Below are positions 23,903-59,535 of a DNA stretch of 64,000 nt, in pieces. The notes under the pieces are model-generated. The model was not told the origin of the DNA, made no database searches, and was given only the letters and a program-made list of their open reading frames with translations. The DNA lies in the NCBI RefSeq assembly GCF_001677475.2, contig NZ_CP015229.1, one strand, 5' to 3'. The translations under genes and the position numbers were made by a program. Positions within the stretch are counted from its first letter, which is position 1. The number at the start of each line of letters is the position of its first letter. This stretch comes from Escherichia coli (GTDB lineage Bacteria > Pseudomonadota > Gammaproteobacteria > Enterobacterales > Enterobacteriaceae).

Positions 23903-25030
<1,128 letters not shown>

Positions 25031-25472
25031 TTATGTTGGCGTTTTCTATTCAGTATAGAAGTGGGAGCGACTGGGCGAGATGCGGAAGTTCTGGAATGTT
25101 TCTTTTTTTGGTGATGGTGAACTGATTGTGACTGAAGAAGTTTGGCTACTTTTGCAATGTGACAAGTTATGGCAGAGCTGGCTGGTGGCGAAGAATTTTG
25201 ACGATTGAGGCATGCAGAAAAAAACGGGTTCAGCTTCAGTTGATCAAATGAGGAGTGAGAAGTCTGAAACAGGACTAACTGTATAAATAAACAGCTATTT
25301 TGCTGAGGAAGGGTAAGATAACGGCGGGTGCCTGAAGCTTTCCGGTTTCAGGTTTACTCTGAGGTCTGGAAAGATGAAGCCCCAGGAGATATTTCTATCA
25401 ACCCTGGGGCTGCCACTCCAAACCCGAACAATTTGGATGGTAGTCCCTTCTTCGCATGGAGGCAATATAAAC

Positions 25473-25625
25473 ATGCTGACGAAATATGCCCTTGTGGCAG
25501 TCATAGTGCTGTGTTTGACGGTACTGGGATTTACGCTTCTGGTCGGAGACTCGCTGTGTGAGTTTACGGTGAAGGAACGTAATATTGAGTTTAAGGCTGT
25601 TCTCGCTTACGAACCGAAGAAGTAG
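25473..25625 (+). CDS. hokE: Hok-family membrane toxin, copy 1
   Basis: ATG at 25473; 50 aa [50 protein letters not shown], typical Hok single-TM toxin. Confidence 0.85.
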
Positions 25626-25876
25626 CCGTTGTGCGGGGAGTAATCCCCGCATATCCGGTTGTCAGGTCAGGGTGGTAAGGCACCTGCTTTACACTTTCGC
25701 CCGCGGTCAGCAATGGCTGCGGGCGATGTCGTTTTAAGGGCAATGATCAGTTTTGCCAACAGAAGTCCGAAACAGGATTCACTGTATAAATAAACAGCTA
25801 TTTTGCTGAGGAAGGGTAAGATAACGGCGGGTGCCTGAAGCTTTCCGGTTTCAGGTTAACTCTGAGGTCTGGAAAG

Positions 25877-26065
25877 ATGAAGCCCCAGGATGATATTTCT
25901 ATCAACCCTGGGGCTACCTACCCAAACCTGAACAATTTGGATGGTAGTCCCTTCTTCGCATGGAGGCAATATAAACATGCTGACGAAATATGCCCTTGTG
26001 GCAGTCATAGTGCTGTGTTTAACGGTGCTGGGATTTACGCTTCTGGTCGGAGACTCGCTGTGTGA
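25877..26065 (+). CDS. mok-like overlapping reading frame, copy 2
   Basis: 62-codon ORF ([12 protein letters not shown]...) starting upstream of and overlapping hok copy 2 in a different frame, the arrangement of mok in hok/sok systems; assignment rests on arrangement only. Confidence 0.45.
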
Positions 26066-26129
26066 GTTTACGGTGAAGGAACGTAATATTGAGTTTAAGG
26101 CTGTTCTCGCTTACGAACCGAAGAAGTAG
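25977..26129 (+). CDS. hokE: Hok-family membrane toxin, copy 2
   Basis: ATG at 25977; 50-aa product identical to copy 1. Confidence 0.85.
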
Positions 26130-26250
26130 CCGTTGTGCGGGGAGTAATCCCCGCATATCCGGTTGTCAGGTCAGGATGGTAAGGCACCTGCTTTACACTT
26201 TCGCCCGTGGTCAGTGATGGCTGCGGGCGAATCGTACCAGATGTTGTCAA

Positions 26251-26871
26251 TTAATCGTGTTGGCACAGCGTTATGACTATTTTTTCTTTTATCTGCCAGT
26301 GCACAGCAAACTGCTCATCCTCTAGTCGAATGATGATCTGCTGTTTATTCCAGCTAATTATCTGATAATCCAGAAAACCTTGAGCGGCCTGTATCTTGCT
26401 TGCCTTAAATGCGCTCTCTTTGGCGGAAAATGCCAGTGTCAGCGCCAGAGAAAAGGTTAAACCGCATTCTGCGAGTCGCTCGTGTTCTGCTGGTGTAATA
26501 ATGTTGTCTGTCAATTCTCTTGCGGTTTGTACAGAGAAAATCTCTTCGATATCAATGCCAATCGGTTGACGAGTTACCACGGCTAATGCCGTAGCCCCAC
26601 AGTGGCTAATACTGCCGTATACCTCCGCAGGCCACACAGGTTGGCGTAGCTCGCCGATTGCGGGCACACATTTATAGCCATATTCCCGCAGCGCATAAAC
26701 TGCAGCGATCCGTCCGGCTAAATGCTCTGTTTTACGTTTACGTCCAGCGTGTTGCAGTTGTGCGTAGTGCGGCAGCCAGAGTAAATCCTGCTCGCGAAAA
26801 CTCGCCGGATCAAACTCAACAAAATGCAGCGTATGTCCTGCAAAGGGGAGGGAGGTATGCGTAGTTTTCAT
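26251..26871 (-). CDS. entD: Enterobactin synthase 4'-phosphopantetheinyl transferase EntD
   Basis: Start trimmed to MKTTHTSLPFAGHTLHF (cat at 26869..26871); 206 aa. Confidence 0.9.
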   Translation of the reverse strand: MKTTHTSLPFAGHTLHFVEFDPASFREQDLLWLPHYAQLQHAGRKRKTEHLAGRIAAVYALREYGYKCVPAIGELRQPVWPAEVYGSISHCGATALAVVTRQPIGIDIEEIFSVQTARELTDNIITPAEHERLAECGLTFSLALTLAFSAKESAFKASKIQAAQGFLDYQIISWNKQQIIIRLEDEQFAVHWQIKEKIVITLCQHD

Positions 26872-26908
26872 GTCGACCATATTAGAGAATGATGACAAAC
26901 GCAAAACT

Positions 26909-27006
26909 GCCTGATGCGCTACGCTTATCAGGCCTACGTGGTCCTGCAATATATTGAATTGGCAAGATTTTGTAGGCCGGATAAGGCGTTCACGCCGCAT
27001 CCGGCA
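26909..27006. repeat. REP/BIME element (two inverted REP units) between entD and fepA
   Basis: gcctgatgcgctacgcttatcaggcctac ... tgtaggccggataaggcgttcacgccgcatccggca; classic enterobacterial REP sequences. Confidence 0.75.
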
Positions 27007-27044
27007 TGAACGACGCGCACTTTGTCAACAATCTGACGTTAGCA

Positions 27045-42760: not shown

Positions 42761-44371
42761 ATGAGCATTCCATTCACCCGCTGGCCGGAAGAGTTTGCCC
42801 GTCGCTATCGGGAAAAAGGCTACTGGCAGGATTTGCCGCTGACCGACATTCTGACTCGCCACGCTGCGAGTGACAGCATCGCGGTTATCGACGGCGAGCG
42901 GCAGTTGAGTTATCGGGAGCTGAATCAGGCGGCGGATAACCTCGCGTGTAGTTTACGCCGTCAGGGCATTAAACCTGGTGAAACCGCGCTGGTACAATTG
43001 GGTAACGTCGCTGAACTTTACATTACCTTTTTCGCACTACTGAAACTGGGCGTTGCGCCGGTGCTGGCGCTGTTCAGCCATCAGCGTAGTGAACTGAACG
43101 CCTATGCCAGCCAGATTGAACCGGTGTTACTGATTGCCGATCGCCAACATGCGCTGTTTAGCGGAGATGATTTCCTTAATACTTTCGTCACAGAACATTC
43201 CTCCATTCGCGTGGTGCAACTGCTCAACGACGGCGGTGAGCATAACTTGCAGGATGCGATTAACCATCCGGCTGAGGATTTTACTGCCACGCCATCACCT
43301 GCTGATGAAGTGGCTTATTTCCAGCTTTCCGGCGGCACCACCGGCACACCGAAACTGATCCCGCGCACTCATAACGACTACTACTACAGCGTGCGTCGTA
43401 GCATCGAGATTTGTCAGTTCACACAACAGACACGCTACCTGTGTGCGATCCCGGCGGCTCATAACTATGCCATGAGTTCGCCAGGATCGCTGGGCGTCTT
43501 TCTTGCCGGAGGAACGGTTGTTCTGGCGGCCGATCCCAGCGCCACGCTTTGCTTCCCATTGATTGAAAAACATCAGGTGAACGTCACCGCGCTGGTGCCG
43601 CCAGCAGTCAGCCTGTGGTTGCAGGCACTGGCTGAAGGCGAAAGCCGAGCGCAGCTTGCCTCGCTGAAACTGTTACAGGTCGGTGGTGCACGTCTTTCTG
43701 CCACGCTTGCGGCGCGTATTCCCGCAGAGATTGGCTGCCAGTTACAGCAGGTGTTTGGCATGGCGGAAGGGCTGGTGAACTACACCCGTCTTGATGATAG
43801 CGCGGAGAAAATTATCCATACCCAGGGTTACCCAATGTGCCCGGACGATGAAGTGTGGGTTGCCGATACTGAAGGAAATCCACTGCCGCAAGGGGAAGTC
43901 GGACGCCTGATGACGCGCGGTCCGTACACCTTCCGTGGCTATTACAAAAGCCCGCAGCACAATGCCAGCGCCTTTGATGCCAACGGTTTTTACTGTTCCG
44001 GCGATCTGATCTCTATTGATCCCGACGGTTATATCACCGTGCAGGGGCGCGAGAAAGATCAGATCAACCGTGGCGGCGAGAAGATCGCAGCCGAAGAGAT
44101 CGAAAACCTGCTGCTGCGCCATCCGGCGGTGATCTACGCCGCACTGGTGAGCATGGAAGATGAGCTGATGGGCGAAAAAAGCTGTGCTTATCTGGTGGTA
44201 AAAGAGCCTCTACGCGCGGTGCAGGTGCGTCGTTTCTTGCGTGAACAGGGTATTGCCGAATTTAAATTACCGGATCGCGTGGAGTGTGTGGATTCACTTC
44301 CGCTGACGGCGGTCGGGAAAGTCGATAAAAAACAATTACGTCAGTGGCTGGCGTCACGCGCATCAGCCTGA
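42761..44371 (+). CDS. entE: 2,3-dihydroxybenzoate-AMP ligase EntE
   Basis: 536-aa ORF; adenylation-domain protein. Confidence 0.95.
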
Positions 44372-44384
44372 AGGAGAGAACACG

Positions 44385-45241
44385 ATGGCTATTCCAAAAT
44401 TACAGGCTTACGCACTGCCGGAGTCTCACGATATTCCGCAGAATAAAGTCGACTGGGCCTTTGAACCGCAACGTGCCGCGTTGTTAATCCATGATATGCA
44501 GGACTATTTTGTCAGCTTCTGGGGCGAGAACTGCCCGATGATGGAGCAGGTGATCGCGAATATTGCGGCACTACGCGACTACTGCAAACAGCACAATATC
44601 CCGGTTTATTACACCGCCCAGCCGAAAGAGCAGAGCGATGAAGATCGGGCGCTGTTGAATGATATGTGGGGACCGGGCCTGACCCGTTCGCCGGAACAGC
44701 AAAAGGTGGTGGATCGCCTGACGCCAGATGCCGACGACACGGTGCTGGTGAAGTGGCGCTACAGCGCGTTTCATCGTTCTCCGCTGGAGCAAATGCTCAA
44801 AGAGAGTGGACGTAACCAGCTGATTATTACCGGGGTATATGCCCACATTGGCTGTATGACCACCGCAACCGACGCATTTATGCGCGATATTAAACCGTTT
44901 ATGGTGGCGGATGCGCTGGCCGATTTCAGCCGTGACGAGCATTTGATGTCGCTGAAATATGTGGCTGGACGTTCTGGCCGGGTGGTGATGACCGAAGAAT
45001 TACTGCCAGCACCTATCCCCGCCAGCAAAGCGGCGCTGCGTGAGGTTATCCTGCCGTTGCTGGACGAGTCCGATGAACCGTTCGATGATGACAACCTGAT
45101 CGACTACGGTTTGGATTCGGTGCGCATGATGGCGCTGGCGGCGCGCTGGCGCAAAGTACATGGCGATATCGACTTTGTCATGCTGGCGAAAACCCCAACC
45201 ATTGATGCCTGGTGGAAACTGCTCTCCCGCGAGGTGAAATA

Positions 45242-45242
<1 letters not shown>
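44385..45242 (+). CDS. entB: Isochorismatase / aryl carrier protein EntB
   Basis: 285-aa ORF; stop overlaps entA start (TAATG). Confidence 0.95.
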
Positions 45243-46404
<1,162 letters not shown>

Positions 46405-46584
46405 GCCCGACAGAATTAAATGAGATTGCAGGAAAACTCGGTTAACGGAGTGATCGAGTTAACATTGTTAAGTTAAATATTGGTTTCAACTCCGATTTAC
46501 ATGGTTGCTGTGTTGTTAAATTGTACAAAGATGTTATAGAAACAAAATGTAACATCTCTATGGACACGCACACGGATAACAACT

Positions 46585-48690
46585 ATGAACAAATCAGGGA
46601 AATACCTCGTCTGGACAGTGCTCTCTGTAATGGGAGCATTTGCTCTGGGATACATTGCTTTAAATCGTGGGGAACAGATCAACGCGCTGTGGATTGTGGT
46701 GGCGTCGGTCTGTATCTATCTGATCGCTTATCGTTTTTATGGTCTGTATATCGCCAAAAATGTGCTGGCGGTTGACCCGACGCGTATGACGCCAGCGGTG
46801 CGCCATAACGACGGGCTGGATTATGTGCCGACGGACAAGAAAGTGCTGTTCGGTCACCATTTTGCGGCCATTGCCGGAGCTGGTCCGTTGGTGGGGCCGG
46901 TGCTGGCAGCGCAAATGGGCTACCTGCCGGGGATGATCTGGCTGCTTGCTGGGGTGGTTCTCGCCGGTGCGGTACAGGATTTCATGGTGCTGTTTGTTTC
47001 CACGCGCCGTGACGGTCGCTCGCTGGGTGAGCTGGTCAAAGAAGAGATGGGGCCAACCGCCGGGGTGATTGCGCTGGTTGCCTGCTTTATGATCATGGTC
47101 ATCATCCTTGCCGTGCTGGCGATGATCGTGGTGAAAGCCCTGACCCATAGCCCGTGGGGAACGTATACCGTTGCGTTCACCATTCCGCTGGCGCTGTTCA
47201 TGGGGATCTACCTGCGCTATCTGCGTCCAGGGCGTATTGGCGAAGTGTCGGTCATTGGCCTGGTGTTCCTGATTTTCGCCATTATCTCTGGCGGCTGGGT
47301 GGCAGAAAGTCCGACCTGGGCACCGTACTTTGACTTTACCGGCGTGCAGCTGACCTGGATGCTGGTGGGTTACGGCTTCGTGGCGGCGGTGCTGCCGGTG
47401 TGGTTGCTGCTGGCCCCGCGTGACTACCTCTCAACCTTCCTGAAAATCGGGACTATTGTCGGTCTGGCGGTAGGCATTCTGATTATGCGCCCGACGCTGA
47501 CCATGCCTGCTCTGACCAAATTTGTTGATGGCACTGGCCCGGTATGGACCGGTAACCTGTTCCCGTTCCTGTTTATTACTATCGCCTGTGGCGCGGTGTC
47601 TGGCTTCCATGCGCTGATCTCTTCTGGCACCACGCCGAAGATGCTGGCGAACGAAGGGCAGGCGTGCTTTATCGGCTACGGTGGGATGTTAATGGAATCC
47701 TTCGTGGCGATTATGGCGCTGGTTTCCGCCTGTATCATCGATCCGGGCGTTTACTTCGCAATGAACAGCCCAATGGCGGTGCTGGCTCCGGCAGGGACGG
47801 CGGATGTGGTTGCTTCTGCCGCGCAGGTGGTGAGTAGCTGGGGCTTTGCGATTACCCCGGATACGCTAAACCAGATTGCCAGCGAAGTGGGTGAACAGTC
47901 GATCATTTCCCGTGCGGGCGGTGCGCCGACCCTGGCGGTGGGGATGGCCTACATTCTGCACGGTGCGCTGGGCGGCATGATGGATGTGGCGTTCTGGTAT
48001 CACTTCGCCATTCTGTTTGAAGCACTGTTTATTCTGACGGCGGTGGATGCAGGTACGCGTGCTGCGCGCTTTATGTTGCAGGATCTGCTGGGCGTGGTGT
48101 CTCCGGGCCTGAAACGGACAGATTCTCTGCCTGCTAACCTGCTGGCAACGGCGCTGTGTGTGCTGGCGTGGGGCTACTTCCTGCATCAGGGCGTGGTCGA
48201 TCCGCTGGGCGGTATTAACACCCTGTGGCCGCTGTTTGGTATTGCCAACCAGATGCTGGCAGGGATGGCGCTGATGCTCTGTGCCGTAGTGCTGTTCAAG
48301 ATGAAACGTCAACGTTACGCCTGGGTGGCGCTGGTGCCAACGGCCTGGCTGCTGATTTGTACCCTGACCGCAGGCTGGCAGAAAGCGTTCAGCCCGGATG
48401 CGAAAGTGGGCTTCCTGGCCATTGCTAATAAGTTCCAGGCAATGATCGACAGCGGTAATATTCCGTCGCAGTATACTGAGTCACAACTGGCGCAACTGGT
48501 GTTCAACAACCGTCTGGATGCCGGGTTGACCATCTTCTTTATGGTGGTTGTGGTGGTTCTGGCGCTGTTCTCGATTAAGACGGCACTGGCGGCATTGAAA
48601 GAGCCGAAGCCAACGGCGAAAGAAACGCCGTATGAGCCAATGCCGGAAAATGTCGAGGAGATCGTGGCGCAGGCGAAAGGCGCGCACTAA
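46585..48690 (+). CDS. cstA: Carbon starvation protein A (peptide/pyruvate transporter)
   Basis: 701-aa polytopic membrane ORF. Confidence 0.95.
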   Translation: MNKSGKYLVWTVLSVMGAFALGYIALNRGEQINALWIVVASVCIYLIAYRFYGLYIAKNVLAVDPTRMTPAVRHNDGLDYVPTDKKVLFGHHFAAIAGAGPLVGPVLAAQMGYLPGMIWLLAGVVLAGAVQDFMVLFVSTRRDGRSLGELVKEEMGPTAGVIALVACFMIMVIILAVLAMIVVKALTHSPWGTYTVAFTIPLALFMGIYLRYLRPGRIGEVSVIGLVFLIFAIISGGWVAESPTWAPYFDFTGVQLTWMLVGYGFVAAVLPVWLLLAPRDYLSTFLKIGTIVGLAVGILIMRPTLTMPALTKFVDGTGPVWTGNLFPFLFITIACGAVSGFHALISSGTTPKMLANEGQACFIGYGGMLMESFVAIMALVSACIIDPGVYFAMNSPMAVLAPAGTADVVASAAQVVSSWGFAITPDTLNQIASEVGEQSIISRAGGAPTLAVGMAYILHGALGGMMDVAFWYHFAILFEALFILTAVDAGTRAARFMLQDLLGVVSPGLKRTDSLPANLLATALCVLAWGYFLHQGVVDPLGGINTLWPLFGIANQMLAGMALMLCAVVLFKMKRQRYAWVALVPTAWLLICTLTAGWQKAFSPDAKVGFLAIANKFQAMIDSGNIPSQYTESQLAQLVFNNRLDAGLTIFFMVVVVVLALFSIKTALAALKEPKPTAKETPYEPMPENVEEIVAQAKGAH

Positions 48691-48748
48691 AGTCAGAGTG
48701 AGGGGGGAATGTTGGCGAATGTTGGCGAAAGTTGGCATGGTGCCGAGG

Positions 48749-48794
48749 GTTCCCCCTCACCCTAACCCTCTCCCCGGTGGGGTGAGGGGACTGA
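48749..48794. repeat. GC-rich palindromic intergenic repeat, copy 2
   Basis: gttccccctcaccctaaccctctccccggtggggtgaggggactga; near-identical to 40355..40399; preceded by three 10-mer direct repeats (gaatgttggc) at 48718..48747. Confidence 0.6.
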
Positions 48795-48853
48795 CCGAGC
48801 GCGTTGATAGCTATTAATGCACTCTCTCAGCAATCTGATTACCGGAGGTATTG

Positions 48854-49051
48854 ATGTTTGATTCACTGGCAAAAGCCGGAAAATATTTAGGTCAGGCGGC
48901 GAAGCTGATGATTGGTATGCCTGATTACGACAACTATGTCGAACATATGCGGGTTAACCATCCCGATCAAACGCCGATGACCTACGAAGAGTTTTTCCGT
49001 GAGCGGCAGGACGCGCGCTACGGTGGAAAAGGTGGCGCGCGCTGCTGCTAA
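48854..49051 (+). CDS. ybdD: Small protein YbdD (DUF466)
   Basis: 65 aa [33 protein letters not shown]...; downstream of cstA. Confidence 0.85.
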
Positions 49052-49060
49052 ATTTGTACG

Positions 49061-50149
49061 TCAGGCTTTAAACGATTCCACTTTTTCGAACGCTGCACGC
49101 AACGTATCTGGTGTCAGCGTGACTGGCAGGTAATGAATGGACTCCACCGGACGTAAGGTGTGGGCAATCACTTTGTCGATCTCCGCCTGATTATTGATAT
49201 CCACTTCCAGCTCCGCCAGCGTAGTCGGCAGATGAAAACGTTGATACGCCCCGGTTAATTGCGCCAGCACATCATCCTGACCCAGCAAGGCGCTTTGCAC
49301 CAGAATGCCGTAGGCGACTTTGGTGCCGTGGAGAAACTTCTCGGTTTGCGGCAAAACGGTCAGACCGTTATGCACGGCATGGGCCGCCGCCACACGCGTA
49401 AAACGATCGCCCAGACCACCGACCATCCCACCACCAGCAATAATAGCATCCACCACATCGCAAAATGATTGCGTTAACTGTTGTTTTTGCTGATCGCTCA
49501 GCGCCTGTTCGCTACTGTTTAACAAGACGTCGCGAATGGCCTGCGCATTATTGATCCCCAGACGCACGGTTAGCGGCAAGGTTTCTGGTTGCGGAGCCAG
49601 CACCACCGCTTCATACCATTTCGCCAGCGTGTCACCGATCCCCGCCAGCAGATATTCTTGCGGCGCATTGAGGATAATCTCTGGCTCCACCAGCACCATA
49701 AAATTGGCGTCGTCGAAAATCTCATAATGCAGCGCCTGTCCGGCATCGTTATACCAGACGGAGAGCGGTGTCCAGGCGGCGCAGGTGGCGGCGATCGTCG
49801 GAACGGCAACAAACGGCAGACCGAGACGGCGGGCGAGGGCTTTCGCGGTGTCGAGCAGTGCGCCGCCGCCGACGCCAATCACCACGCTGCGATCGTCACC
49901 GGACTCAGCCGCCAGGTGCTGTACATCGCTTTCGCTGCAATGACCGCGAAACAAAATATGCTTTGCACCAGGCAGTTGAAACGCTGGTGGAAGTCTGATT
50001 TGCGCCGCAGCAATGGCGCGTTCGCCGTAGATCCACACCGCGCGAGAAAGCTGTTCATCAGTGAAAAAGTCGTGCAGGTGATTGAAACTTCCTGGATGTG
50101 AAAAGTAGTTAGCCGGGCCGACGACGACGCGGATAGGATTGTGAGGCAT
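49061..50149 (-). CDS. ybdH: Iron-containing (glycerol dehydrogenase-like) alcohol dehydrogenase family protein YbdH
   Basis: 362-aa ORF. Confidence 0.85.
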   Translation of the reverse strand: MPHNPIRVVVGPANYFSHPGSFNHLHDFFTDEQLSRAVWIYGERAIAAAQIRLPPAFQLPGAKHILFRGHCSESDVQHLAAESGDDRSVVIGVGGGALLDTAKALARRLGLPFVAVPTIAATCAAWTPLSVWYNDAGQALHYEIFDDANFMVLVEPEIILNAPQEYLLAGIGDTLAKWYEAVVLAPQPETLPLTVRLGINNAQAIRDVLLNSSEQALSDQQKQQLTQSFCDVVDAIIAGGGMVGGLGDRFTRVAAAHAVHNGLTVLPQTEKFLHGTKVAYGILVQSALLGQDDVLAQLTGAYQRFHLPTTLAELEVDINNQAEIDKVIAHTLRPVESIHYLPVTLTPDTLRAAFEKVESFKA

Positions 50150-50257
50150 GTTGTGTTGTCCTTATTGTTTTATTTAGACATCTAAACGTCTTGATTGCCA
50201 AATACTAGCATCGTGTTATAGTGCCTTCAACACGCAACTTCGTCAGGCACAATAAAA

Positions 50258-51418
50258 ATGACAAATAACCCTCTGATTCCACAAAGCAAACTTCCACAAC
50301 TTGGCACTACCATTTTCACCCAGATGAGCGCGCTGGCGCAGCAACACCAGGCGATTAACCTGTCGCAAGGCTTTCCTGATTTTGATGGTCCGCGCTATTT
50401 ACAGGAGCGGCTGGCGTACCACGTTGCCCAGGGGGCAAACCAATACGCGCCCATGACCGGCGTGCAGGCCTTGCGCGAGGCGATTGCTCAGAAAACGGAA
50501 CGTTTGTATGGCTATCAACCAGATGCCGATAGCGATATCACCGTAACGGCAGGGGCGACGGAAGCGTTATATGCAGCGATTACCGCATTGGTGCGCAATG
50601 GTGATGAAGTGATCTGCTTTGATCCCAGCTATGACAGTTACGCGCCCGCCATCGCGCTTTCGGGGGGAATAGTGAAACGTATTGCACTGCAACCACCGCA
50701 TTTTCGCGTGGACTGGCAGGAATTTGCCGCATTGTTAAGCGAGCGCACCCGACTGGTGATCCTCAACACCCCGCATAACCCCAGTGCAACTGTCTGGCAG
50801 CAGGCTGATTTCGCCGCTTTGTGGCAGGCAATTGCCGGGCACGAGATTTTTGTCATTAGCGATGAAGTTTACGAGCACATCAACTTTTCACAACAGGGCC
50901 ATGCCAGCGTGCTGTCGCATCCGCAGCTGCGTGAGCGGGCGGTGGCAGTTTCTTCATTTGGCAAGACTTATCATATGACCGGCTGGAAAGTGGGTTATTG
51001 CGTTGCGCCAGCGCCCATCAGTGCCGAAATTCGCAAGGTACATCAGTATCTGACCTTTTCGGTAAATACCCCGGCGCAACTGGCGCTTGCCGATATGCTA
51101 CGTGCAGAACCTGAGCATTATCTTGCGTTACCGGACTTTTATCGCCAGAAACGCGATATTCTGGTGAATGCCTTAAGTGAGAGTCGGCTGGAGATTTTAC
51201 CGTGCGAAGGTACATACTTTTTGCTGGTGGATTACAGCGCCGTGTCTACGCTGGATGACGTTGAGTTTTGCCAGTGGCTGACGCGGGAGCACGGTGTAGC
51301 GGCGATTCCGCTGTCGGTGTTTTGCGCCGATCCCTTCCCCCATAAACTGATTCGTCTCTGTTTTGCCAAGAAGGAATCGACGTTGCTGGCAGCAGCTGAA
51401 CGCCTGCGCCAGCTGTAG
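50258..51418 (+). CDS. ybdL: PLP-dependent methionine aminotransferase YbdL
   Basis: 386-aa ORF; class I aminotransferase. Confidence 0.9.
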   Translation: MTNNPLIPQSKLPQLGTTIFTQMSALAQQHQAINLSQGFPDFDGPRYLQERLAYHVAQGANQYAPMTGVQALREAIAQKTERLYGYQPDADSDITVTAGATEALYAAITALVRNGDEVICFDPSYDSYAPAIALSGGIVKRIALQPPHFRVDWQEFAALLSERTRLVILNTPHNPSATVWQQADFAALWQAIAGHEIFVISDEVYEHINFSQQGHASVLSHPQLRERAVAVSSFGKTYHMTGWKVGYCVAPAPISAEIRKVHQYLTFSVNTPAQLALADMLRAEPEHYLALPDFYRQKRDILVNALSESRLEILPCEGTYFLLVDYSAVSTLDDVEFCQWLTREHGVAAIPLSVFCADPFPHKLIRLCFAKKESTLLAAAERLRQL

Positions 51419-52048
51419 TTATTTAACCGTCCAGGCGCGGGAAAATTGACGGTCGGCAAACAGTTCTTGCAGGCCGTTAATTTGCTTCAGGCGCAGCACT
51501 TCGTCGCTGTCCATTCCCAGCTCTTTGCCGATTTTATGATCGTCCCATCCCAACTGGCTGAGTTCACGAACAATTTCGGACATGGCAGTGATTTGGTGGC
51601 GACCACGAGCGCGGTTATGACGAATAGTCGCGGCGATGCGTTGATTACGCGTACCTTCCAGACAGGTCACCGGCAAATAACCTTTTAAGCGTAATTTTAA
51701 CGATGATGAGCCTTTACCAATTTCATGGCGGTGAAAACCATCCACGATTTCCAGGGCATTTTTATCCGTATGCGTGACCACAATGGGTTGGGTAAAACCA
51801 TCTATTTCAATGGATTTTTTCAGCAGTTTTTTTTCGGGTGGTGCCACGTTGTTTGGGTTGTAATCATTAGGCATAAGTTGGCTGTTTTTAACCCACAGAA
51901 CGCAATCCACTGGCTCTTCTCGAAAGGGGCTAACCTGATGGATCGCCATGCGGATTTCATTAATCGCTTTGATGCGATCGTCTTCCGGCAAGCTGGCGAG
52001 AAATTGGGTTAAATCCTGCGTTAATCGTTGTTGCATAGTATCCCCCAT
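51419..52048 (-). CDS. ybdM: ParB/sulfiredoxin-like domain protein YbdM (IbrB-like)
   Basis: 209-aa ORF with DGFHRH motif (IVDGFHRHEIG); overlaps ybdN by 28 nt. Confidence 0.85.
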   Translation of the reverse strand: MGDTMQQRLTQDLTQFLASLPEDDRIKAINEIRMAIHQVSPFREEPVDCVLWVKNSQLMPNDYNPNNVAPPEKKLLKKSIEIDGFTQPIVVTHTDKNALEIVDGFHRHEIGKGSSSLKLRLKGYLPVTCLEGTRNQRIAATIRHNRARGRHQITAMSEIVRELSQLGWDDHKIGKELGMDSDEVLRLKQINGLQELFADRQFSRAWTVK

Positions 52049-55246: not shown

Positions 55247-55617
55247 TAATTTGTCCTTTTCAGTCAGTGCAAAAGTCGAGTAAAAGGCATAACCTATCAC
55301 TGTCATAGGTAAGAGCTTAGATCAGGTGATTGCCCTTTGTTTATGAGGGTGTTGTAATCCATGTCGTTGTTGCATTTGTAAGGGCAACACCTCAGCCTGC
55401 AGGCAGGCGCTGAAGATACCAAAGGGTAGTTCAGATTACACGGTCACCTGGAAAGGGGGCCATTTTACTTTTTATCGCCGCTGGCGGTGCAAAGTTCACA
55501 AAGTTGTCTTACGAAGGTTGTAAGGTAAAACTTATCGATTTGATAATGGAAACGCATTAGCCGAATCGGCAAAAATTGGTTACCTTACATCTCATCGAAA
55601 ACACGGAGGAAGTATAG

Positions 55618-59307: not shown

Positions 59308-59535
59308 TTTTACTCCATGTCGTCGGTACTGCGAGTGTCGCAGTAAACATACCCAAAAGAAAACCCTCACCGTCAGGCGGCGAGGGTTTAACTCACATGA
59401 TGATACTGACTGTTGCTCACTCTTTGAAGTGATTTGCGTCACATTCAGGGAATTCCTCAATGCAGCGCATTATGTATAATTCTTAATCGTCACGGTTTAT
59501 GGAAGACGAATTAGCGTGTTTTGTAAATCAGATGA

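Follow-up and report, generated by a model that had tools for sequence, protein, structure and literature searches.

The DNA analyzed here is a 64,000-nt stretch of the Escherichia coli contig NZ_CP015229.1 (the window). Its plus strand carries two hokE open reading frames (ORFs), each within one unit of a tandem direct repeat that recurs every 503/504 bp (families D1 and D2), and the second of these ORFs is the one under study. The repeat is flanked on one side by nfsB, ybdF, ybdJ, and ybdK (ybdK at 23903-25021, minus strand) and on the other by entD (26251-27000, minus strand), followed by fepA. The site between ybdK and entD is the hokE site of E. coli, and synteny together with protein identity places the gene among the hokE orthologues. 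The copy 2 protein is identical to a RefSeq HokE annotated in FDAARGOS_1282 and other strains. It belongs to the Hok/Gef family, as indicated by a PF01848 (HOK_GEF) score of 34.0 bits against a gathering cut-off of 22, with residues 5-46 aligned to profile positions 1-42 of 42. The NCBIfam Hok-family models gave only matches below their strict cut-offs. RefSeq lists two hokE genes at the matching site in many genomes, for example O157:H7, O111, and O169, and three in the isolate SC418, so arrays of three units exist.

Architecture of the Two Units

The features of the array are collected in the table below. The 34-nt segment that separates the two units is diagnostic of the duplication.

Table. 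Features of the hokE/sokE array in the window (positions are those of the window)
Feature	Position	Strand	Description and basis
hokE/sokE unit 1	25258-25726	+	469 nt, complete; direct repeats D1/D2 and pairwise alignment
hokE/sokE unit 2	25761-26230	+	470 nt, complete; holds the ORF under study; repeats, alignment, column comparison
Inter-unit junction TGTCGTTTTAAGGGCAATGATCAGTTTTGCCAAC	25727-25760	+	34 nt; no alignment between the units or to either flank
hok mRNA leader, unit 1	25326-25481	+	RF01794, 84.4 bits (gathering 59); inferred 5' end 25326
hok mRNA leader, unit 2	25829-25985	+	RF01794, 86.8 bits (gathering 59); inferred 5' end 25829
tac element GGGTGCCT, unit 1	25326-25333	+	5' end of inferred mRNA
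tac element, unit 2	25829-25836	+	5' end of inferred mRNA
Sok antisense RNA, unit 1	25370-25429	-	60 nt, 5' end 25429; homology to annotated K-12 sokE
Sok antisense RNA, unit 2	25873-25933	-	61 nt; differs from Sok 1 by 5 bases and 1 indel; homology placement
Upstream-ATG ORF, unit 1	25374-25625	+	In frame with hok; 83-aa N-terminally extended Hok; start codon under Sok
Upstream-ATG ORF, unit 2	25877-26065	+	62-aa mok-like, other frame; overlaps hok start, ends 89 nt into hok
Putative Sok promoter, unit 1	25437-25465	-	-35 TTGCCT 25460-25465, 17-nt spacer, -10 TACCAT 25437-25442; read by eye from homology-mapped Sok 5' end
Putative Sok promoter, unit 2	25941-25969	-	Counterpart of unit 1 block
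hokE ORF, copy 1	25473-25625	+	50 aa and stop; Pfam HOK_GEF match on the in-frame 83-aa ORF containing copy 1
hokE ORF, copy 2 (under study)	25977-26129	+	50 aa and stop; 153 nt; PF01848 match; WP_000956465.1
fbi element AGGCACCT, unit 1	25678-25685	+	Pairs with tac in MFE fold
fbi element, unit 2	26182-26189	+	Counterpart of unit 1 fbi
3' terminal hairpin, unit 1	25697-25726	+	13 bp, GCAA loop, then TGTCGTTTTA; terminator-like call and folds
3' terminal hairpin, unit 2	26201-26230	+	13 bp, GUGA loop; one C-G to U-G; no T-run after; repeats and fold

Both units match the Rfam sok/hok leader model RF01794 over its full length. The 5' ends of the mRNAs were taken from the start of this model and the transcript ends were placed by homology, which gives full-length mRNAs of 402 and 403 nt at 25326-25727 and 25829-26231. 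The folds of these putative transcripts are far more stable than those of shuffled sequences (z = -7.4 and -8.2). In both minimum free energy (MFE) folds, an 8-bp helix closes the molecule, with GGGUGCCU at the 5' end paired to AGGCACCU of the 3' UTR, which corresponds in silico to the tac/fbi interaction described for hok of plasmid R1 (PMC9841398). All eight pairs of this helix are invariant across 26 distinct units, as is the helix covering the Shine-Dalgarno (SD) region of hok, and the helix over the end of the ORF likewise never varies. No compensatory changes on both sides of pairs were seen in the full-length mRNA structure of the 26 distinct units, the divergence of which is too shallow. 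A covariation test on the same units gave 98.4% of cells paired versus 98.3% in a shuffle control, so that the control is uninformative.

Each predicted Sok folds as an 11-nt 5' tail followed by a hairpin and a U-rich end. Placed by homology, it lies antisense in cis to the hok mRNA and covers the upstream ATG (25374 in unit 1 and 25877 in unit 2), the sole Sok-covered ATG of each unit. The putative Sok promoter of unit 1 overlaps the hok SD sequence GGAGG at 25458-25462, and this promoter/SD block is nearly invariant in the 26 distinct units. A scan for the sigma-70 consensus called a promoter for neither hok nor Sok.

The differences between the two 3' terminal hairpins are structure-neutral: a C-G pair becomes U-G, and the GCAA and GUGA loops are both of the GNRA type. 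The terminator scan gave no call for the hairpin of unit 2, where the U-tract is absent. Each unit of the window is thus a complete hok/sok module in which all recognizable elements are intact.

The surroundings of the last hairpin vary among strains. The unit 2 hairpin is followed by AATCGTACCA (26231-26250, compared with 25727-25736 in unit 1), which abuts the 3' end of the convergent entD gene. All terminal or single units in other strains are likewise followed by AATCGTACCA without a T-run. Strains A1.S1.126, K56-43-un, and M1/5 have an island between the hokE array and entD, with two SDR oxidoreductase genes and an ABC transporter permease gene, and the sequence after the last unit differs accordingly.

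The upstream ORFs of both window units run through the hok SD sequence in different frames, because unit 2 has an extra T at 25891. Running through the SD is the feature that matters in R1, and both units are therefore potentially translatable. In R1, Hok is no longer translated when the upstream ORF ends ahead of the hok SD (PMC9841398). The frame of this putative mokE is polymorphic, with three classes among 37 units sampled from the window and 19 E. coli genomes, a non-random set picked from BLAST lists. The leader length is also polymorphic (146, 147, or 148 nt). The 146-nt leaders, found in other strains, give a 22-aa upstream ORF that stops 29 nt before hok, and in two sampled units the upstream ORF stops at 17 aa. 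By analogy with R1, units of these two kinds may be silent.

The hokE/sokE locus of K-12 (b4415/b4835) occupies the same chromosomal site between ybdK and entD. Its leader is base-for-base identical to that of window unit 1, its upstream ATG is in frame with hokE as in that unit, and its 50-aa HokE differs from the window toxin only by V8A. In the curated K-12 record, sokE lies on the opposite strand, 44-103 nt ahead of the hokE ATG, the same position as Sok in the window. However, K-12 has a single unit, in which IS186B sits 18 nt past the stop codon and cuts off the 3' UTR with its fbi element and terminal hairpin, whereas the window has two complete units and no insertion sequence. Unit 2 of the window also differs from K-12 in its leader haplotype and its shifted upstream frame.

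Divergence of the Units and Selection on the Toxin

The sequence-only reading had described two identical 50-aa toxins with diverged flanks. Both ORFs indeed translate to the same HokE, and the two flank differences it quoted are real: tttactctgag versus ttaactctgag corresponds to T25355 versus A25858, and gcaatggctg versus gtgatggctg to CA at 25711-12 versus TG at 26215-16. That description was incomplete, however, since the ORFs are not identical at the nucleotide level and a 1-nt indel in the leader had been overlooked. A column-by-column comparison gives 15 substitutions and one indel in total (96.8% overall identity). The flanks within the repeat account for 13 of the substitutions (13/317 = 4.1%) and the indel: three substitutions fall in the 68-nt part upstream of the transcript, six in the leader (147/148 nt), together with the indel, and four in the 3' UTR (101 nt). 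The two remaining substitutions, both synonymous, lie in the 153-nt ORF at 25517 (G/A, Leu15) and 25523 (A/G, Val17). The indel is the extra T of unit 2, which has no counterpart between 25387 and 25388, and it is the inter-unit difference with the largest predicted effect.

The silent sites of the ORF are as diverged as the flanks (2/37.7 = 5.3% versus 4.1%, p = 0.67), and the contrast between the whole ORF and the flanks is not significant (2/153 versus 13/317, Fisher p = 0.16). Nonsynonymous sites differ from the flanks (0/112, p = 0.025), and the finding that both ORF changes are synonymous has p = 0.063 (0/112 versus synonymous sites). Selection on the ORF is thus only weakly visible within the window pair alone (p of about 0.03-0.06).

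Selection on the ORF, which had been put forward from the window pair, is borne out by the comparison across strains and not convincingly by the pair itself. Averaged over pairs of the 37 units, pN is 0.0069 against a pS of 0.077, and variation at synonymous sites is thus 11-fold that at replacement sites (pN/pS of 0.09, from a calculation that takes no account of recombination). The sample contains 13 synonymous and 6 nonsynonymous variants on 37.7 and 112.3 sites, respectively (binomial p = 8.9e-5), and its 19 ORF haplotypes encode only 6 proteins. The HokE peptide is 96-100% conserved out to E. albertii, where the flanking DNA is about 90% identical. Purifying selection on the HokE peptide is therefore well supported. 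The assumption that the flanks drift freely is wrong. Nucleotide diversity (π) in the flanks (0.053 upstream, 0.040 in the leader, and 0.024 in the 3' UTR) is lower than the 0.077 of the synonymous ORF sites, and the flanks contain invariant regulatory RNA elements.

The commonest protein allele is encoded by 24 of the 37 units, and the chance that two random units encode the same protein, calculated from the allele frequencies in the sample, is about 0.455 (623/1369). Identical proteins were observed in 7 of 16 multi-copy genomes. An identical toxin pair, such as that in the window, is an expected outcome and not a special signal.

Some variants within the peptide are potentially disruptive. 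Unit 1 of the O157:H7 strain 9234 carries L18P in the transmembrane helix together with K41R. G25R occurs in the last unit of four sampled loci (L001, L004, L007, and L014) and in both E. whittamii units. TadA A-to-I editing is reported to turn the Tyr46 codon of hokE mRNA into a Cys codon, which would create a partner for Cys29. In all units examined, the UACG context of this codon (TAC followed by G; 25608-25611 and 26112-26115) is invariant.

It could be argued that the units are decaying, non-functional relics and that the ORF is kept by other constraints, such as mRNA structure or overlapping frames. The activity of chromosomal hok loci is disputed, and hokA, hokB, and hokC have been reported not to mediate post-segregational killing. 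The truncated K-12 locus, the L18P and G25R alleles, and the upstream ORFs that stop before the hok SD, which make up about a quarter of the sampled units and would abolish Hok translation if R1 is a guide (PMC9841398), all point in this direction. However, a structural RNA constraint would depress synonymous change as well, and the observed deficit is specific to replacements. Every recognizable element is intact in both window units, the protein is far better conserved out to E. albertii than the flanking DNA, and HokE is toxic when expressed (10.1101/2025.08.07.668861). We consider decay distinctly unlikely. The selection on the peptide argues that chromosomal hokE is maintained for function.

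Recombination and Age of the Array

A second possibility is that gene conversion or unequal crossing-over alone homogenizes the ORF, in place of purifying selection. Recombination in the array is indeed strong: all four gametes are present at 47% of the informative site pairs, with Rm of at least 9 in 403 nt. The same ORF and unit haplotypes are found at either the first or the second position, depending on the genome, and there are three-unit arrays, as in SC418. In E. whittamii and in the divergent 'E. coli' SCPM-O-B-8794, the two paralogues group with each other, and their proteins are identical. Each segment of each window unit has 0-2 differences from the unit of some other strain, with different strains for different segments. 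The mosaic segments, the four-gamete result, and the clustering of paralogues show that the array goes back to an old duplication and is being reshaped by recombination, gene conversion, and unequal exchange. Nevertheless, conversion does not discriminate between silent and replacement sites, whereas the window ORFs have two synonymous differences and no replacement difference. Across the sampled units the excess of synonymous over replacement variation points the same way, and 9 of the 16 multi-copy genomes encode non-identical proteins. Conversion clearly operates, but it is no substitute for selection as the cause of the identity, and we regard homogenization by conversion alone as very unlikely.

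The distribution of the junction bears on the age of the duplication. Of 5,426 complete E. coli genomes, at least 2,450 (at least 45%) match 80% or more of a 121-nt query that spans the junction; single-unit genomes match one end only of this query. An exact 30-mer from the invariant SD/start block led to two-unit arrays in E. whittamii, Escherichia sp. MOD1-EC7003, and SCPM-O-B-8794, which have a period of about 502-503 bp and recognizably homologous junctions. Since the junction is present in other Escherichia lineages as well as in a large part of E. coli, the duplication is old and arose before E. coli and its sister Escherichia lineages separated. It is polymorphic, with 1, 2, or 3 units.

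The units of the window also have positional relatives elsewhere. In strains 7/2, FDAARGOS_1282, and M21170, unit 1 differs from window unit 1 at 5 positions, and unit 2 differs from window unit 2 at 7-9. The window units differ from each other at 16 positions, more than either differs from its positional counterpart.

The sequence-only reading had offered a very recent tandem duplication as an alternative to selection, with the identity due to lack of time. Such a strain-specific event would agree with the high inter-unit identity and with the similar divergence of the whole ORF and the flanks, but it is contradicted by the shared junction, by units nearer to those of other strains than to their neighbor, by segments that all have close matches in other strains, and by the 5.3% silent divergence between the ORFs, and it is almost certainly wrong.

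Among the 5,426 complete RefSeq E. coli genomes, the best identity to the window was only 97.4% over 22 kb for window positions 14000-36000 and 96.8% over 8 kb for positions 44000-52000. Identity to five GTDB representatives that share the exact 30-mer was 93-97%. The window seems to come from a divergent lineage that lies on the margin of sampled E. coli or outside it, and its array nonetheless shares the junction.

Taken together, we conclude that the ORF under study is a toxin gene, the second of two complete tandem hokE/sokE type I toxin-antitoxin (TA) units in the ybdK-entD intergenic region, which arose by an ancient, recombining duplication and encode identical toxins through purifying selection and one dominant allele. 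We assign this reading a probability of nearly nine in ten. The two units would then be distinct, long-lived unit lineages that recombine and convert with each other and with the alleles of other strains. The identity of their toxins would follow from purifying selection on the peptide combined with the dominance of one protein allele in the population.

Proposed Mechanism and Relation to Known Systems

The tac/fbi/mok/Sok mechanism of R1 hok has been described (PMC9841398), and the window units resemble R1 hok/sok in the Hok/Gef toxin, the match to the Rfam leader model, the tac/fbi helix, the tail and hairpin of Sok, and the start of the upstream ORF under Sok. By analogy, we propose that each unit would be expressed as a stable, tightly folded hok mRNA, in which the 5' tac element would pair with the 3' fbi element and render the mRNA untranslatable. 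Slow 3' trimming would then open it. The short, unstable antisense Sok would bind the leader where the mok-like upstream start codon lies, leading to a translation block and decay, and the membrane-damaging 50-aa Hok peptide would be made only on loss of Sok. There are also differences from R1. The window locus lies on the chromosome instead of a plasmid, has a leader shorter by about 26 nt, and has its mok-like start elsewhere, with the upstream frame of unit 1 in frame with hok instead of overlapping out of frame as in R1. Post-segregational killing is not expected for the window locus.

The Sok 5' tail and its target (25412-25429 in unit 1 and 25916-25933 in unit 2) form the most polymorphic stretch of the unit. 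Nine of its 18 columns vary among the 26 distinct units, compared with about 11% of columns elsewhere (post hoc Fisher p = 8e-5), and of the ten substitutions by which the transcribed flanks of the window units differ, five fall here. Were this segment to evolve under diversifying pressure, each Sok would be expected to act mainly on the hok mRNA of its own unit, as in Sib/Ibs, for which repression is reported between cognate pairs only (PMC2887945, PMC2943612), a precedent for a hypervariable Sok-target segment. In that case the leader indel would constitute a second difference, with an in-frame extended Hok in unit 1 and an overlapping mok in unit 2. The predicted duplexes of the 5' 22 nt of Sok with hok mRNA are weaker for cross pairs (-30 kcal/mol) than for cognate pairs (-45 and -48 kcal/mol), but the cross-duplexes are still very stable, and orthogonality of the two Sok RNAs is therefore not claimed. 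It is unlikely, in our view, that the units are partly insulated TA pairs instead of redundant copies, each Sok preferring its own hok mRNA and the indel adding a different translational coupling.

This kind of feature is already known: chromosomal hokE/sokE, multi-copy hok, and tandem hok 'islets' have all been published. In Escherichia, 13.5% of the chromosomal hok genes lie in such islets, which hold 2-6 copies (10.1101/2025.08.07.668861), and the array in the window belongs exactly to this class, which has been described in Escherichia and Proteus. That survey deals with peptides only, without the age of the hokE array, its junction, recombination between units, or variation of the leader and Sok. 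Type I TA loci tend to undergo tandem duplication (PMC2887945). The ibs/sib, ldr/rdl, and zorO/zorP loci (PMC2887945, PMC2943612) likewise consist of several units of toxin and antisense RNA, nearly identical to one another, within a single intergenic region, although they encode toxin families unrelated to HokE and differ in RNA architecture.

As a discovery, the array carries little weight. It is a textbook locus, and two hokE genes are already annotated by RefSeq in thousands of genomes. The main gain is a corrected evolutionary reading, that of an old, recombining, and polymorphic array in which the toxin peptide is under clear purifying selection. In addition, the hypervariable Sok-target segment and the polymorphic mok-like frame bear on the redundancy of tandem type I TA copies.

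On the minus strand, an ORF lies opposite the hok leader and start. In unit 1 it spans 84 aa (25398-25652), and in unit 2 it is split into 50-aa and 45-aa pieces (25856-26008 and 26019-26156). Counterparts of this antisense ORF are annotated by PGAP as 'hypothetical protein'. We rejected it as a real gene, given that it is frameshifted or interrupted by an internal stop in most genomes and broken in unit 2 of the window; it is probably a spurious call.

The entD-fepA intergenic region (26930-27016) contains REP-type elements, with a match to ES036 above its gathering score at 26930-26971 (minus strand) and a partial match to naRNA4 at 26975-27016. Other Rfam matches in the window, unrelated to hokE, are the rnk leader (59352-59460, minus strand), the STnc70 sRNA (55380-55473, plus strand), and a tRNA (3801-3874, plus strand).
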